This document shows positions 1,781-43,656 of a stretch of DNA of 64,000 nucleotides, piece by piece. Source of the DNA: a virus (Duplodnaviria; Heunggongvirae; Uroviricota; Caudoviricetes); the IMG/VR virus record IMGVR_UViG_651053022_000004, positions 14,440 through 78,439 of that record; one strand, given 5' to 3'. The notes beneath the pieces are model-generated. The model saw nothing but the letters and a program-made list of their open reading frames with translations, searched no databases and had not been told where the DNA came from. Made by a program: the position numbers and the translations under genes. Every line of letters begins with the position of its first letter. Within the stretch, counting starts at the first letter, position 1.

Positions 1781-1806
<26 letters not shown>
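1261..1806 (+). CDS. nu1: terminase small subunit
   Basis: 181 aa; MEVNKKQLADIFGASIRTIQNWQEQGMPV... matches lambda gpNu1 almost residue for residue; first gene after cos. Confidence 0.97.
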
Positions 1807-5487
<3,681 letters not shown>

Positions 5488-5507
<20 letters not shown>

Positions 5508-20430: not shown

Positions 20431-20796
20431 ATGGCTGAGCTTCGTACACTCCAGAGCAGAATCAAAACACTGAATACCCGACGGGTGAATATTCTGAAGG
20501 GGGAGCAGCGTCGTGTCAGTGGCAGTGCACGTGTTTCCCTCAAGCGTCATATCTGGCTGAGGGACGCCGGGCAGTGCTGTATCTGTGGTCGTGTGGTTGA
20601 CCTCTGTGACAGTGAACTCGATCACCGAATTGCACTTCAGTTCGGTGGTGGTAATGAGGAGACGAATCTTTGGACGCTCTGTGCCGAATGCCATCGACAA
20701 AAGTCTGCTCGTGAAGCGGCGAGTGGTATGCCGGACCCGACGCTGCCGGAGGTGTCCGGAGGTAGTGGCAGAGAGGACGACATCATCGGACTGTAA
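20431..20796 (+). CDS. HNH endonuclease (terminase-associated)
   Basis: 121 aa with CxxC...DHRIALQFGGGNEETNLWTLCAECHRQK HNH/zinc-finger motif, located just upstream of the terminase genes. Confidence 0.85.
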   Translation: MAELRTLQSRIKTLNTRRVNILKGEQRRVSGSARVSLKRHIWLRDAGQCCICGRVVDLCDSELDHRIALQFGGGNEETNLWTLCAECHRQKSAREAASGMPDPTLPEVSGGSGREDDIIGL

Positions 20797-20888
20797 CCCA
20801 ACCCGGGGGGGGTATCATCCGGCGTAAAAAACGATCGCTTTGGACACCGCGCCCCCTCTCACGCAGAGAAAAAATTCCCGTTTCAGGG

Positions 20889-21012
20889 CAGTTAACATGT
20901 TAACTGGCTGCCCGGGCATTTTTGCGGTTTTTATCTTTATTATTCAGTTTGTTGTGCGGAAAAAATGTTAACAGGCTTTTTCAGCAAATGTTAACCAGGC
21001 AGCAGTTAACAT
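20889..21012. repeat. cluster of gttaacat/atgttaac sites upstream of the terminase small subunit gene, including an 18-bp perfect palindrome
   Basis: cagttaacatgttaactg at 20889-20906; atgttaac at 20965 and 20988; gttaacat at 21005. Confidence 0.8.
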
Positions 21013-21086
21013 TTGCGGCATGAGACGCCGGGAAAAATGGGCTGAACCATACCCGGCTGAGTGCGTTCTGGACCCGGGAGGAGGCT

Positions 21087-21650
21087 GTGCTGACAACGCA
21101 AAAACGAAAATTTGCGCTGGCGCTCATGTCCGGGAAAAACAAAACAGCGTCAGCCATTGCCGCCGGTTATTCGGCGAAGACCGCCAGGGTTAAAGGCTCG
21201 CAGCTGGCAAAAGATCCTGAGGTGCTTGCGTTTATAGCCCGTAAACAATGCGAGACGGTGGAGGTGGATGAGGTTCCTGTTTACCGGCAGAAAAAATCAG
21301 AGCAGGAGGATAAACCCCGTCGCCGTGAGGCGGCTGCAATACCACAGCCGGACGAAAACAATCTGGAGATGCCACCGTCCGCGGTGATGTCTCCTGGTAT
21401 TGAATATATGGAGGATGGTCTTCCCGATCCGGTGAAAGCCATGGGGCGGATCCTGGTGGAAAACCTCTGCATTGATCCGAAACTGGCACTGGATGCGGCC
21501 TGGCGTCTGGCGCAGTTCACGCACCATAAAAAAGGGGATACCGGGAAAAAATCGGCAAAAGGTGATGCCGCGAAAAAAGCGGCTAACCGTTTTGCGGTGC
21601 CACCGCCCCCCCGACTGGTGGTGAATAACGATAATGAGGGCAACGGATGA
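21087..21650 (+). CDS. terminase small subunit
   Basis: 187 aa, GTG start after RBS GGGAGGAGG; N-terminal HTH-like KRKFALALMSGKNKTASAIAAGYSAKTARVKGSQL; sits immediately before the large subunit gene. Confidence 0.8.
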   Translation: MLTTQKRKFALALMSGKNKTASAIAAGYSAKTARVKGSQLAKDPEVLAFIARKQCETVEVDEVPVYRQKKSEQEDKPRRREAAAIPQPDENNLEMPPSAVMSPGIEYMEDGLPDPVKAMGRILVENLCIDPKLALDAAWRLAQFTHHKKGDTGKKSAKGDAAKKAANRFAVPPPPRLVVNNDNEGNG

Positions 21651-23308
21651 TACCTGTATGGAGCACAGCCTGCCCGGACTGGGCAGAGCGCCTGAAAAAG
21701 GGGCTGTCGATTATTCCGGATCCGATTTATCCGGACGAGGCCGCACATGCCCTGGCGATTTTTAAACAACTGCGGATTGTGGATGCACCTGGTAGCCCTA
21801 CGTTCGGGGAGTCCTGTGCACCGTGGGTGTTTGACCTGGTGGCGGCCCTGTTTGGCTCCTACGATGCGCAGACCGGTGTACGCCATATCAAGGAAGTTTT
21901 TATCCTTATCCCCAAGAAAAACTCGAAGTCCACGCTGGCCGCGGGGATCATGATGACTGCACTGTTACTGAACTGGCGGCAGGCGGCGGGTTACACGATT
22001 CTGGCCCCGACTGTGGAGGTGGCGGCCAACGCCTTCAACCCTGCCCGGGATATGGTACGACGTGACGATGATCTGGATGACCTCTGCCAGGTACAGACCC
22101 ATATCCGGACCATCACCCACCGAGTGACGGACACCACCCTGAAGGTGGTGGCAGCCGATCCGAATACGGTGTCCGGTATCAAGTCCGTGGGTACGCTGAT
22201 TGATGAGTTGTGGCTGTTTGGCAAGCAGTGCAAGGCGGAGGACATGTTACGTGAAGCCATAGGCGGCCTTGCCTCCCGCCCGGAAGGGTTTGTGGTGTAT
22301 ACGACCACCCAGTCGAATGAACCGCCCGCCGGGGTGTTCAGACAGAAACTGCAGTACGCCCGGGATGTGCGCGACGGCAAAATTCATGATCCGCACTTTC
22401 TGCCGGTGATATTTGAACACCCTCCTGAAATGGTGGAAAGCGGGACTAACCTGCTGATGGAAAACCTCGCCATGGTCAATCCGAATCTCGGCTATTCAGT
22501 GGATGAGGCCTTTCTGTACCGGGAGTACCGTAAAGCCCGGGAAGCCGGTGAAGAGACATTCCGGGGGTTCATGTCAAAACACGCCAATGTGGAAATTGGT
22601 CTTGCCCTGCGCTCTGACCGCTGGGCGGGGGCTGATTTCTGGGAAGAGCAGGGCCGTTGTATCAGCCTGGACGATATCCTGCGTCGTGCTGATGTGGTGA
22701 CGGTGGGGATTGACGGCGGAGGGCTGGATGATCTGCTGGGGATGTATGTGATTGGGCGTGACCGGGAGACCCGCGAATGGCTGGGCTGGGGCCATGCCTG
22801 GGCGCATGAAACCGCGGTGGTCCGACGGAAGAGCGAGGCGTCCCGGTTTCAGGATCTTGTTGCCTGTGGAGATATGACCATTGTCCGGCGTGTCGGGGAT
22901 GACACGGCGGAAGTGGCGGAATATGTGCGTCGCATTCATGAGGCTGAGTTACTGGACCATATCGGTATTGACCCGTCAGGGGTGGGGCAGATTCTGGATT
23001 CACTGGCGGAAGCCGGGATCCCCGACGGAATTGTGGTGGGGATAAGCCAGGGCTGGAAACTGGGCGGGGCCATTAAAACCACCGAGCGCAAACTGGCTGA
23101 AGGGGTGCTGGTGCATGGTGACCAGCCCCTGATGGCCTGGTGTGTCGGCAATGCCCGGGTGGAGCCTAAAGGTAACGCCATTCTTATCACCAAACAGGCC
23201 AGTGGACGGGGAAAAATTGACCCGCTGATGGCGCTGTTCAATGCGGTCTCCCTGATGTCCCTTAACCCGGAACCGAAAAAGAAAGAATATGCGGTTTTTT
23301 TCATATAA
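21647..23308 (+). CDS. terminase large subunit
   Basis: 553 aa with P-loop-like FILIPKKNSKST and nuclease-domain acidic motifs; overlaps the TerS stop. Confidence 0.88.
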   Translation: MIPVWSTACPDWAERLKKGLSIIPDPIYPDEAAHALAIFKQLRIVDAPGSPTFGESCAPWVFDLVAALFGSYDAQTGVRHIKEVFILIPKKNSKSTLAAGIMMTALLLNWRQAAGYTILAPTVEVAANAFNPARDMVRRDDDLDDLCQVQTHIRTITHRVTDTTLKVVAADPNTVSGIKSVGTLIDELWLFGKQCKAEDMLREAIGGLASRPEGFVVYTTTQSNEPPAGVFRQKLQYARDVRDGKIHDPHFLPVIFEHPPEMVESGTNLLMENLAMVNPNLGYSVDEAFLYREYRKAREAGEETFRGFMSKHANVEIGLALRSDRWAGADFWEEQGRCISLDDILRRADVVTVGIDGGGLDDLLGMYVIGRDRETREWLGWGHAWAHETAVVRRKSEASRFQDLVACGDMTIVRRVGDDTAEVAEYVRRIHEAELLDHIGIDPSGVGQILDSLAEAGIPDGIVVGISQGWKLGGAIKTTERKLAEGVLVHGDQPLMAWCVGNARVEPKGNAILITKQASGRGKIDPLMALFNAVSLMSLNPEPKKKEYAVFFI

Positions 23309-40042: not shown

Positions 40043-40525
40043 ATGTCTGGACCCCCGAAAACCCCGCCACGCCTGCATTTGATACGAGGCAACCCCTCAA
40101 AGCGGCCAGTTAAAGACCTCAAAAAAACCGCTAAAAAGGATGAAAAAGGTCTCCCTAAAATTCCGCAACATTTAGGGGCGCAGGGGAAGTACTGGTTCAG
40201 GCGAATGGCGGAAGAGCTGAATGCGGAAGGGATCATTTCTCAGCTTGATGCGCGTGCGCTTGAGCTACTGGTGGAAGCCTATACCGAATACCGGCATCAC
40301 TGCGAAACACTCGATGTTGAGGGGTACACCTACCGCTCGAAAACGCAGAACGGTGATGTGCTGATTAAGGCACACCCGGCTGCTGCGATGAAAGCGGATG
40401 CCTGGAAGCGGATCCGGGCGATGCTTGCAGAATTTGGTATGTCACCGGCAAGCCGGGCAAAAGTAAATACCGCCGGACCGGATAATGTTGATCCGCTGGC
40501 AGAGCTTTTAAAAGCGAGAGACTGA
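40043..40525 (+). CDS. terminase small subunit (P27 family)
   Basis: 160 aa; basic N-terminus, position directly before the large subunit gene. Confidence 0.8.
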   Translation: MSGPPKTPPRLHLIRGNPSKRPVKDLKKTAKKDEKGLPKIPQHLGAQGKYWFRRMAEELNAEGIISQLDARALELLVEAYTEYRHHCETLDVEGYTYRSKTQNGDVLIKAHPAAAMKADAWKRIRAMLAEFGMSPASRAKVNTAGPDNVDPLAELLKARD

Positions 40526-42282
40526 TGGCAAAAGTGGCTGACGGGATCCGCTACGCCGAACGTGTTGTTGCAGGAGAAATTGTTGCTGGCGAATTTGTCC
40601 GCCTGGCCTGCCAGCGTTTTCTTGATGATCTGAAGTACGGCGAAAAGCGGGGGATTTATTTCAGTGAACCCCGTGCGCAGCACATCCTGAATTTCTACAA
40701 ATTTGTGCCTCATGTAAAAGGGGCACTGGCAGGCCAGCCCATTGAGTTGATGGACTGGCATGTATTTATCCTCATTAATATTTTTGGTTTTGTCATTCCG
40801 CTGGTCAATGAAGAAACCGGGGAAGTTGTCATGCGCAGCGATGGCAGCGGACGTCCGGTGATGGTGCGCCGGTTCCGGACGGCGTACAACGAAGTCGCCC
40901 GTAAAAACGCAAAATCAACCCTGTCATCGGGTATCGGCCTGTATATGACGGGGGCAGATAGTGAAGGCGGAGCTGAGGTGTATTCAGCCGCAACCACGCG
41001 TGACCAGGCCAGAATCGTGTTTGAAGACGCCAAAAATATGGTCAGAAAAGCCCGGTCGACACTCGGGCGGTTGTTTGATTTCAACAAGCTGGCGATTTAC
41101 CAGGAGCAGAGCGCATCAAAATTTGAACCGCTTTCCTCGGATGCAAACAACCTGGACGGTCTGAACATCCACTGCGCCATTATTGATGAGCTGCATGCAC
41201 ATAAAACCCGCGACGTGTGGGACGTTCTGGAAACGGCAACCGGTGCCCGTCTGCAGTCCCTGTTATTTGGTATCACCACGGCTGGCTTTAACAAGGAAGG
41301 GATTTGTTACGAGCAGCGTGATTACGCCATCAAGGTATTGCGAGGCTATAACAGCGACGTGGAGGGCGCTGTAAAAGACGACTCTTACTTTGCGATCATT
41401 TACACGCTTGATGAGGGAGATGATCCGTTTGATGAAACGGTCTGGCAGAAAGCGAATCCTGGCCTGGGCATCTGTAAACGCTGGGATGATCTGCGTCGTC
41501 TGGCGAAAAAAGCGAAGGAGCAGGTCTCTGCGCGGGTGAATTTTTTTACCAAACACATGAATGTGTGGGTCACTGCCGAATCTGCCTGGATGGATATGAT
41601 TAAGTGGGAGAAGTGCGAATACATTGCTCCACAACATGAGCTGAAAACATATCCCATGTGGGTCGGCGTCGACCTTGCTCATAAGATTGATATCTGTGCG
41701 GCGGCAAAACTCTGGCGAACCGATAACGGACATGTTCATGCTGATTTTAAATTCTGGCTTCCGGAAGGACGGCTGGAACGATGCTCGCGGCAGCAGGCAG
41801 AACTTTACCGGAAGTGGGCGGAGATGGATAAGCTCATCCTGACGGATGGTGATGTTATCGATCATGCTCAGATAAAAAGTGACTTACTGGAATGGATTGG
41901 CGGTGAAAACCTCAGGGAACTGGGATTTGACCCGTGGAGCGCAATGCAGTTCAGTCTGGCACTGGCTGAAGAAGGGATACCGCTGGTGGAGGTTCCGCAG
42001 ACGGTCCGCAATCTGTCAGAGGCCATGAAGGAAACGGAATCACTGGTTTATGCCGGGCGTTTCCATCACAGCAATCATCCGGTCATGAACTGGATGATGT
42101 CTAACGTTACTGTAAAACCGGACAAAAACGACAACATCTTCCCGAATAAATCCACGCCGGAAGCCAAAATCGACGGCCCTGTTGCGCTTTTTACAGCCAT
42201 GAGCCGCTTTCTGGTAAATGGCGGGGGCGTGAATGACTTTCTGTCCACGCTTGATCCTGATGAGGACCTGTTAATTCTGTGA
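40525..42282 (+). CDS. terminase large subunit
   Basis: 585 aa; ATPase Walker-like and RNaseH-like nuclease motifs; ATGA overlap with the TerS stop. Confidence 0.9.
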   Translation: MAKVADGIRYAERVVAGEIVAGEFVRLACQRFLDDLKYGEKRGIYFSEPRAQHILNFYKFVPHVKGALAGQPIELMDWHVFILINIFGFVIPLVNEETGEVVMRSDGSGRPVMVRRFRTAYNEVARKNAKSTLSSGIGLYMTGADSEGGAEVYSAATTRDQARIVFEDAKNMVRKARSTLGRLFDFNKLAIYQEQSASKFEPLSSDANNLDGLNIHCAIIDELHAHKTRDVWDVLETATGARLQSLLFGITTAGFNKEGICYEQRDYAIKVLRGYNSDVEGAVKDDSYFAIIYTLDEGDDPFDETVWQKANPGLGICKRWDDLRRLAKKAKEQVSARVNFFTKHMNVWVTAESAWMDMIKWEKCEYIAPQHELKTYPMWVGVDLAHKIDICAAAKLWRTDNGHVHADFKFWLPEGRLERCSRQQAELYRKWAEMDKLILTDGDVIDHAQIKSDLLEWIGGENLRELGFDPWSAMQFSLALAEEGIPLVEVPQTVRNLSEAMKETESLVYAGRFHHSNHPVMNWMMSNVTVKPDKNDNIFPNKSTPEAKIDGPVALFTAMSRFLVNGGGVNDFLSTLDPDEDLLIL

Positions 42283-42429: not shown

Positions 42430-43656
42430 ATGCTTCTTGATGCTCTGTTTCGCAGTGAGCCTCTGGAAAATCCCTCGGTTCCGGTAACCGGAGAGGCCGC
42501 AGAGACGGATAATATTTTTGCCCGGGATGTGTATGTCAGTCCGGAAACGTCCATGAGGCTGGCTGCTGTCTATGCCTGTATTTATGTTATTTCATCCAGT
42601 GTGGCTCAGATGCCCCTGCATGTGATGCGAAAAACGAATGAGCATGTTCAGCCGGCACGCGATCACCCGTTGTTCTGGCTCGTTCATGATGAACCGAATG
42701 CCTGGCAGACCAGCTATAAGTGGCGGGAACTGAAGCAGCGTCATGTGCTGGGGTGGGGCAATGGTTATACGTGGGTGAAACGTAATCGTCGTGGCGAGGT
42801 TACCAGTCTTGAATGCTGTATGCCATGGGAAACCACGTTACTTAACACCGGAGGGCGTCATACCTACGGTGTGTATAACGAAGAGGGTGCATTTGCGGTA
42901 AGTCCGGACGACATGATCCATATCAGGGCGCTGGGAAACAATCAGAAAATGGGACTGAGTCCGATCATGCAGCATGCTGAAACCATTGGTATGGGAATGA
43001 GTGGTCAGCAGTATACCAGTGCTTTTTTTAACGGTAATGCCCGTCCTGCCGGGATTATTTCTGTGAAAAATGAACTGAACGAACAGAGTTGGAGCAGGCT
43101 CAAGAATATGTGGCAGCGGGCGGTGACAGCGCTTCGCAGCCAGGAAAATAAAACCATGTTGCTGCCTGCGCAACTGGATTACCGCGCTCTGACAGTTTCT
43201 CCGGTGGATGCTCAGATCATTGATATGACCAAGCTGAACCGGTCGATGATTGCCGGGATTTTTAATGTCCCGGCGCACATGATTAATGACCTGGAAAAAG
43301 CCACATTTTCGAATATTACGCAGCAGGCGATTCAGTTTGTTCGCTACACGATGATGCCCTGGGTTGCGAACTGGGAGCAGGAGCTTAACCGTCGCCTGTT
43401 TACCCGTACAGAACGGGCTGCCGGGTATTACGTTCGTTTCAACCTCACGGGGTTGCTCCGTGGGACCCCACAGGAGCGTGCGCAGTTCTATCACTTTGCC
43501 ATTACAGATGGCTGGATGAGTCGGAATGAAGCCAGGGCATTTGAGGATATGAACCCGGTTGACGGTCTGGATGAAATGCTGGTCAGCGTAAATGCAGCAA
43601 ATCCGTTGAATAACTTTAAAGATACGAAAGGCAAAGAGGAAAAGAACGATGAATGA
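42430..43656 (+). CDS. portal protein (HK97 family)
   Basis: 408 aa; typical HK97-family portal length and position. Confidence 0.88.
   Translation: MLLDALFRSEPLENPSVPVTGEAAETDNIFARDVYVSPETSMRLAAVYACIYVISSSVAQMPLHVMRKTNEHVQPARDHPLFWLVHDEPNAWQTSYKWRELKQRHVLGWGNGYTWVKRNRRGEVTSLECCMPWETTLLNTGGRHTYGVYNEEGAFAVSPDDMIHIRALGNNQKMGLSPIMQHAETIGMGMSGQQYTSAFFNGNARPAGIISVKNELNEQSWSRLKNMWQRAVTALRSQENKTMLLPAQLDYRALTVSPVDAQIIDMTKLNRSMIAGIFNVPAHMINDLEKATFSNITQQAIQFVRYTMMPWVANWEQELNRRLFTRTERAAGYYVRFNLTGLLRGTPQERAQFYHFAITDGWMSRNEARAFEDMNPVDGLDEMLVSVNAANPLNNFKDTKGKEEKNDE

Follow-up and report, generated by a model that had tools for sequence, protein, structure and literature searches.

A half-site array beside the cos cut of an HNH-assisted cos-packaging prophage, probably the recognition element of its small terminase

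The window analysed here, a 64-kb stretch (64,000 nt) of a tailed-phage record, contains a packaging module on the plus strand. The module includes an HNH endonuclease gene lying directly upstream of cos (20431-20796; Pfam HNH PF01844, E=2.7e-7), a spacer of 290 bp (20797-21086), as an earlier note on this DNA had stated, the small terminase gene terS (21087-21650, 187 aa, GTG start; Pfam Terminase_2, E=1.3e-8, residues 2-57), the large terminase gene terL (21647-23308, 553 aa; Pfam TerL_ATPase and TerL_nuclease), and, next after terL, a protease-capsid fusion gene. No NCBIfam family matched TerS or TerL of the window. The start of terS was assigned to the GTG at 21087 based on the homology of the resulting MLT... 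terminus to relatives and on the Shine-Dalgarno sequence GGAGGAGG (21077-21084, plus strand), which stands 2 nt before the GTG. In the record of the Stx1 phage Lys8385Vzw (MT225100, L275:185-793), the annotated terS begins at position 185 and thus 45 nt ahead of this GTG. Codons 52-54 of terS (21241-21249) read GTAAACAAT, one base off the half-site GTAAACAT of relatives, and this sequence seems recurrent among window-type loci. More large ORFs are present in the window outside the module (1781-3706, 3906-5507, 40525-42282, and 42430-43656); these may be part of other phage modules.

The spacer contains all copies of the 8-mer GTTAACAT found in the 64-kb window: five copies, both strands counted, lie within 122 bp (20891-21012), and none was found in the rest of the window on either strand. 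The copies start at 20891, 20897 (minus strand), 20965 (minus), 20988 (minus), and 21005 (plus). With the whole window shuffled, 1.27 copies are expected, and the Poisson estimate for at least five copies in any 122-bp stretch of the window is about 4e-11. Two head-to-head copies form element P (CAGTTAACATGTTAACTG, 20889-20906), which is indeed the perfect 18-bp palindrome described in the earlier note. A lone half-site on the minus strand (AAATGTTAAC, 20963-20972, with the 8-mer at 20965-20972) forms a direct repeat with the left arm of element I, which follows 23 bp downstream. Element I (GCAAATGTTAAC-N9-GTTAACATTTGC, 20984-21016, with the 8-mers at 20988-21012) consists of inverted half-sites with 12-nt arms that are 100% complementary and a 9-nt gap. 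The three extra half-sites that had been noticed beside the palindrome are thus present; however, their distances are 23 and 15 bp rather than about 20 bp, and the first of them lies 63 bp past the second hexamer of the palindrome (hexamer starts 20899 and 20967). The label "HpaI-type" given to the repeats describes the hexamer only, and nothing ties the sites to restriction-modification. The hexamer spacings (8, 68, 23, and 15 bp) are without helical phasing, which counts against reading the sites as a TerS-recognition array.

Between elements P and I, the spacer is rich in T-tracts (ATTTTTGCGGTTTTTATCTTTATTATT, 20919-20950, plus strand), which are partly conserved among the diverged E. coli variants discussed below and may give the DNA an intrinsic bend. 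No match to the IHF consensus WATCAANNNNTTR was found in 20797-21086 at up to one mismatch, and a scan of the HNH-terS spacer for promoters and terminators gave nothing convincing.

The position of the array relative to the virion end follows from phages with sequenced termini. The genome of Lys8385Vzw, which carries the same module as the window, was ordered by PhageTerm after induction and sequencing, and according to its authors the ends are 3' cohesive and the cos sequence is CGCCCCCCCT (PMC7946995). The right terminus of the record reads ...GGACAC CGCCCCCCCT (excerpts ...GGACACCGCCCCCCCT and ...GATCGCTCCGGACACCGCCCCCCCT), and the left terminus CTCACGCAGAG... (excerpts CTCACGCAGAGAAAAAATTCCCGTTTCAGGGCAGTTAACATGTTAAC and CTCACGCAGAGAAAAAATTCCCGTTTCAGGGCAGTTAACATGTTAACTGG...). 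The left virion end corresponds to window position 20858, 31 bp before the palindrome; this places the array at +34 to +155, the palindrome at +32 to +49, and terS from +230. In the distantly related Acinetobacter phage fEg-Aba01, a 10-nt 3' cohesive end, CGCCCCCCAT, was established by PhageTerm and by gels of heated and cooled DNA (PMC7354433). This end aligns without gaps to window 20848-20857, and the joined ends align to 20842-20879; an HNH gene lies upstream in fEg-Aba01 as well, and the N-terminus of its TerS is 51% identical to that of the window. From the Lys8385Vzw termini and the fEg-Aba01 alignment, the 10-nt 3' cohesive-end segment cosN of the window is predicted to be CGCGCCCCCT (20848-20857, plus strand), the assignment of 10-nt 3' ends being based on record termini and published data for phages with the same or a homologous module. 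Virion ends mapping elsewhere had been named in the earlier note as an argument against packaging recognition; the ends of both phages correspond to positions beside the array of the window.

The cohesive-end segment is the middle part of a conserved cos core, GGACAC / CGCGCCCCCT / CTCACGCAGAGAAAAAATTCCC (20842-20879, plus strand), which is near-invariant from E. coli to Acinetobacter and Burkholderia relatives; in the 64-kb window, the core of the type studied has a single occurrence. Its right-hand box, CTCACGCAGAGAAAAAATTCCC at +1 to +22, is nearly invariant and includes an A-tract. To the left of the cut by 36-52 bp lies a G8 run within the CCGGGGGGGGTATCA box (20805-20812, plus strand), common to relatives and HK97; the TerL or HNH part of the packaging machinery may use it as a site. 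The G8-9 run is followed by (T)ATCA both in the window (20805-20817) and in HK97 (L110:585-600), the TerS proteins of the two being unrelated. In PPompW prophages (L084:1546-3004, PPompW_699, LC567826.1), an ISEc20 element of the IS110 family ends in the G-run left of cos, at the equivalent of window ~20809-20812, and the junction is the same in six records; in PPompW_699, the late-regulator Q and tRNA genes stand directly upstream of ISEc20, and no lysis or HNH genes are annotated from there to cos.

Residues 1-57 of TerS form a helix-turn-helix domain of the G1P type, with the recognition helix at about residues 30-41. The AlphaFold model of this N-terminal domain contains four helices (pLDDT 85-91). 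Its best Foldseek match is the DNA-binding domain of SF6 G1P (4zc3, TM 0.84, rmsd 1.6 A), followed by PaP3/NV1, and HMMER also aligned the window TerS with the SF6 G1P-type domain. No match of the Nu1 type was obtained, Terminase_2 being the only Pfam assignment. In SPP1, the sites bound by G1P lie on both sides of the cut, and they overlap the ribosome-binding site as well as the 5' end of the G1P gene (PMC6316719).

Homologous loci in other genera were missed when the genome collection was scanned with a single TerS protein, whereas a query made of a two-sequence alignment found them. Salmonella phage FSL SP-016, with TerL 83% and TerS 49% identical to those of the window and with a nearly identical TerS N-terminus, has a homologue of window 20798-20904, and its terS starts inside the homologue of the palindrome. 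The same arrangement was found in about 75 distinct Enterobacterales relatives, in which the palindrome stands at the same distance from the cut as in the window and contains the terS start codon in the sequence GTAAAC ATG TTA ACA, encoding Met-Leu-Thr. The layout, which comprises the G-run, GGACAC-CGCGCCCCCT-CTCACGCACAGAAAAAATTCCC, and a near-palindrome 38 nt after TCACGC with terS starting within it, is shared by Salmonella, Atlantibacter, Kluyvera, Serratia, Kosakonia, Enterobacter, Citrobacter, Phytobacter, Rouxiella, Erwinia, Pantoea, and Buttiauxella, as well as by IMG/VR contigs. Comparison with the cos regions of phages carrying homologous TerS, proposed in the earlier note as a check, thus finds the motif equally far from the cut in different genera.

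The ATG at 20897-20899 (plus strand) is homologous to the start codon of terS in these relatives and is not the terS start in the window. As it lies at exactly the distance of the relatives' start codon, it represents the start codon of the ancestral terS. In the window, about 190 bp of additional DNA lie between it and terS, which restarts with GTG CTG ACA; the half-sites are located 75-196 bp upstream of the present start, apart from its Shine-Dalgarno sequence. A blastn-short search for the origin of the 190-bp spacer, run against the relatives as well as the remainder of the window, gave no significant match. The small ORF opened by ATG 20897 (20897-20971; 24 codons, hydrophobic, MLTGCPGIFAVFIFIIQFVVRKKC) was rejected as a gene, since it is not conserved between the window and E. 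coli strain 48, where it has only 5 codons.

The relatives also have a counterpart of element I. An inverted half-site pair, AATGTT(T/A)A(T/C)-ACCCCAGCR-GTAAACA (AATGTTTAT-ACCCCAGCR-GTAAACA), with a 9-nt gap, is embedded in the otherwise variable linker of their terS, and its geometry is the same as that of element I (20988-21012). Without gaps, 19-21 of 26 bases are identical between the two, and when the sites were held fixed, 5 of 1000 shuffles reached the observed collinearity score. The aligned sequences suggest that the region around element I may be descended from the ancestral linker element; if so, it would follow that this lineage kept the DNA sites after the old 5' half of terS stopped coding. 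The canonical relatives have an extra half-site, GTAAACAT, across the cut, the copy of which has degenerated to GTAAAAAACG in the window lineage. The linker site is absent from four relatives (L165, L166, L172, and L180), so not every site is essential.

Where the sites lie inside terS, the codons that spell them are frozen. Among 74 distinct terS genes, Leu2 is always TTA (74/74) and Thr3 always ACA (74/74); in the linker, V70 is GTT in 59/59, T72 is ACC in 58/58, V75 is GTA in 57/61, and N76 is AAC in 56/58 of the genes. At a Val-Asn pair near the C-terminus of terS, which served as a control, all four Val codons and both Asn codons are used freely. The frozen codons at the start and in the linker therefore reflect a constraint on DNA and not on the protein alone. 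Almost no synonymous variation was seen also in codons 12-15 (GCG CTG ATG TCC; e.g., L083:2634-2645) and 43-49 (GAC CCG .. GTC ATC .. TTT; L083:2727-2747) of the 74 distinct genes. A rare TTA codon in a Burkholderia phage was considered as a sign of DNA constraint and dropped, as the sample was too small (TTA in 2/16 Leu codons).

In the lineages where terS has been displaced from the motif, namely Pantoea, Proteus, and fEg-Aba01, the motif is kept in place and often multiplied. Pantoea has two copies of GTTAACCC and one of GTAAACCC, Proteus a single GTTAAC at the place of the motif, and fEg-Aba01 three repeats of AAGTTAAA in the stretch from the cos end to terS. The Proteus prophage (Proteus mirabilis ATCC 29906) also contains about 12 tandem 12-bp units with (G/A)TTAA(C/T) inside terS (L101:2168-2326); to judge from its sequence, the repeat looks like the half-site of the family amplified in coding sequence. 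In the protein, the tandem units give the TerS linker a repeated xVNx peptide (KVNSKVNFDVNTEVN...).

Within E. coli, the cos region is present in 1277 of 5426 complete genomes, in up to 7 copies per genome. Matches to the 290-bp spacer were found at 2999 places in E. coli genomes, 6 of them on plasmids. The module occurs at 93-100% identity in 94 phage records, including BP-4795, 2851, 1717, YYZ-2008, and many Stx1a/Stx2 phages. All members of this close family (80 IMG/VR loci and the 94 phage records) keep the sites; this invariance carries little weight, since the family is 95-99% identical overall. Most of the 94 records list no feature under the spacer, the records of BP-4795, phage 2851, PPompW_699, and Lys8385Vzw contain no annotation of cos or of a TerS site, and the site sequences were not found in a literature search. 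The array is thus most likely an element of an ordinary kind, previously undescribed for this very common phage family, and its probable function would be no surprise to a specialist, given the position.

Four E. coli chromosomes (strain 48, 2012C-4221, A34, and O158:H23) carry a diverged version of the locus, in which all five half-sites are found at the same positions as RTAAACAT instead of GTTAACAT. The diverged palindrome, TATAAACATGTTTATA, is still perfect because both arms have changed symmetrically, and the lone half-site is AAATGTTTAT in all variants. Among the spacer columns of the diverged clade, 95 of 155 are invariant, compared with all 38 of the site columns (Fisher 1e-7). When all six versions are taken, 30/38 site columns and 47/155 spacer columns are invariant (5.5e-8).

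Sliding identity between the window and strain 48 is 94-100% up to position 20880. It falls to 36-94% per 50-nt bin in 20881-21417, with most bins at 36-86% and the bin 21230-21279 at 94%, and from 21418 it is mostly 90-98% again (two bins at 86%, one at 78%). At the protein level, HNH (96.7%), the N-terminal part of TerL (97.6%), and the C-terminus of TerS (96.2%) are nearly identical between the two, and the N-terminal 57 residues of TerS are 87.7% identical; cosN, too, belongs to the well-conserved parts (96-98%). The only block diverging from strain 48 (20881-21417, plus strand) comprises the array, the spacer, and the TerS DNA-binding domain with its linker; since divergence is confined to this block, the array and the DNA-binding domain travel together as one cassette. 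The TerS differences between the window and the diverged variants include A30E, T32S, and V35C in the predicted recognition helix, so that one version of the cassette combines GTTAACAT with the helix AKTARV, and the other RTAAACAT with EKSARC. Across subfamilies, Thr32 accompanies TTAA cores almost exclusively, and Ser32 mixed or TAAA cores; this trend is suggestive of a link between residue 32 and the third base of the half-site, as far as crude counting over few non-independent lineages allows. It is possible, if rather doubtful, that the block is an exchangeable packaging-specificity cassette, the versions of which would set packaging compatibility groups among co-resident lambdoid and Stx prophages and decide which defective prophages or satellites a helper mobilises.

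Taken together, the comparisons suggest, with a probability of about 75%, that the cluster is the TerS-recognition part of cos, functionally a cosB, in a cos-packaging prophage of the Shiga-toxin type with HK97-style assistance by an HNH protein. The TerS DNA-binding domain is pointed to as the partner of the sites by their fixed distance from the cut, the frozen synonymous positions, the concerted change of the five half-sites, and the co-inheritance of both parts in the cassette. The proposal of the earlier note that the repeats form a TerS recognition array is in this way supported by end mapping and comparative evidence, TerS being the putative binder. From its alternatives of a cosB- or pac-like site, the defined cohesive ends favour cos and not pac, and the suggested operator set is left only as a possible secondary function of these TerS-DNA contacts.

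The mechanism could be as follows. TerL together with the HNH protein would nick the concatemer at 20847/20848 and 20857/20858, producing the 10-nt 3' cohesive ends. The half-sites, of the general form RTWAACAT, would sit just inside the first-packaged end, at +34 to +155, where they could be bound by the N-terminal helix-turn-helix domains of a TerS oligomer, with domains in pairs on the head-to-head half-sites of P and on the inverted half-sites of I, which are spaced by N9; TerS as the binding protein, this stoichiometry, and any bending of the DNA are what we infer. Bound TerS would then anchor TerL at the adjoining cut site and set the direction of packaging. The ancestral state was probably that of most relatives, with P over the ribosome site and start codon of terS and I in the terS linker. 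The E. coli lineage would have kept the same DNA sites, now non-coding, while the 190-bp spacer parts them from terS, presumably restarted at 21087 with its own Shine-Dalgarno sequence.

Several other explanations of the array were considered. The half-sites could be bound by a protein other than TerS, such as HNH, TerL, a host nucleoid protein, or a phage regulator, in which case they would be an operator or would have an accessory or architectural role in cos. The conserved box at +1 to +22 could then play the role of TerS site, as in HK97, whose TerS binds +15 to +29 (PMC11331095); by this analogy, TerS could bind mainly to the box, leaving the GTTAAC sites to another factor. A weak promoter-like match on the minus strand also overlaps the sites, but such a match is trivial, as TTAACA and TAACAT resemble promoter hexamers. 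The window and strain 48 share 97% identity in HNH and TerL, and yet all five sites have changed, along with the DNA-binding domain of TerS; the IHF consensus was not found in 20797-21086 at up to one mismatch, and the motif has no further copies in 64 kb, unlike operators near early promoters. We therefore regard a binder other than TerS as unlikely. Quite improbable, too, is that the sites serve mainly as an autoregulatory operator of terS and not for packaging recognition, although a precedent exists: the SPP1 terminase represses its own synthesis, with pac overlapping the ribosome-binding site and 5' end of gene 1 (PMC6316719), and the palindrome of about 75 relatives extends over the terS start codon and the region of ribosome binding. 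In the window lineage, however, the sites are detached from the terS start and are nevertheless conserved in 1277/5426 complete E. coli genomes, and the linker element, about 210 nt inside the gene, is poorly placed for an operator; moreover, both roles coexist in SPP1.

The repeats might also be non-functional relics, that is, the decayed 5' end and linker of an older terS left by duplication or recombination. The homology of ATG 20897 to the relatives' terS start and the collinearity of the element I region with the relatives' linker element (19-21/26 bases) agree with such an origin, which would itself be compatible with a present function. Decay alone is very doubtful, because in the diverged clade the 38 site columns are invariant while spacers are down to 36-68% identity, and because the arms of the palindrome have changed symmetrically. 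Finally, the inverted repeats could act as an RNA structure in the late transcript and control terS translation. The predicted fold of 20880-21095 has a z-score of -2.25, but the strain 48 variant reaches only -1.36 with a different predicted fold, a loopless palindrome with AU-rich arms makes a poor hairpin, and the direct-repeat arrays of Pantoea, Acinetobacter, and Proteus are unable to form the structure, so that this explanation is hardly credible.

If TerS recognition is the function of the array, it has practical and mechanistic consequences. A recognition array defines which DNA is packageable, and thereby which co-resident prophages or engineered cos plasmids move. The short symmetric half-sites, with natural variants that change together with the recognition helix, offer a tractable model for the reading of DNA by TerS, and the palindrome embedded in the start codon, the concerted change of five sites, and the cassette of array and TerS domain make the system directly testable. 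How small terminases read DNA was described as still elusive in a 2022 review (PMC9611059); were the cassette reading true, the natural pairing of half-sites with recognition helices could help settle how these ring-shaped proteins do so.

Among known packaging systems, the array resembles cosB of phage lambda (R3-I1-R2-R1, bound by gpNu1) in having several short repeats in mixed orientation, here putative TerS sites, located between the nicking site and the small-terminase gene on the first-packaged side. The spans are also similar, the window array occupying +34 to +155 with terS at +230, and lambda cosB roughly +50 to +170 with Nu1 at +191. On the other hand, the window TerS is of the Terminase_2/G1P type and not a Nu1 winged helix, its family uses an HNH partner and has 10-nt 3' overhangs, those of lambda being 5', no IHF site corresponding to I1 was found in the window spacer, and the dyad-symmetric half-sites of 8 bp differ from the 16-bp R boxes of lambda. 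Due to the different TerS fold, the opposite overhang polarity, and the lack of an IHF site, the array does not belong to the lambda cosB family. In lambda, cosB is needed together with cosN for the start of packaging (PMC6739421).

The pac regions of SPP1 and SF6 (pacL-pacC-pacR, bound by gp1/G1P) are recognized by a TerS with the same DNA-binding fold, and, at the sequence level, the sites of the canonical relatives of the window overlap the terS ribosome-binding site and 5' coding part and flank the cut as in SPP1. The sites of the window itself differ in lying all to the right of the cut, outside and upstream of terS, and the defined cohesive ends of the family (PMC7946995, PMC7354433) set it apart from the headful (pac) packaging of SPP1 and SF6. 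With HK97, the window shares the HNH gene directly upstream, the 10-nt 3' ends, a G-run about 45-50 bp left of the cut (GGGGGGGGGATCAA in HK97, ending about 46 nt before the right end), and the location of terS immediately to the right of the cut. The HNH protein of HK97, gp74, stimulates cos cleavage (PMC9410871). HK97 gp1 belongs to another sequence family, with no Terminase_2 match, and is absent from the PDB matches of the window TerS. The HK97 TerS binds a single 15-bp site at +15 to +29, with DNA passing through the central channel (PMC11331095), whereas the window combines five dyad or repeated half-sites with a helix-turn-helix domain.
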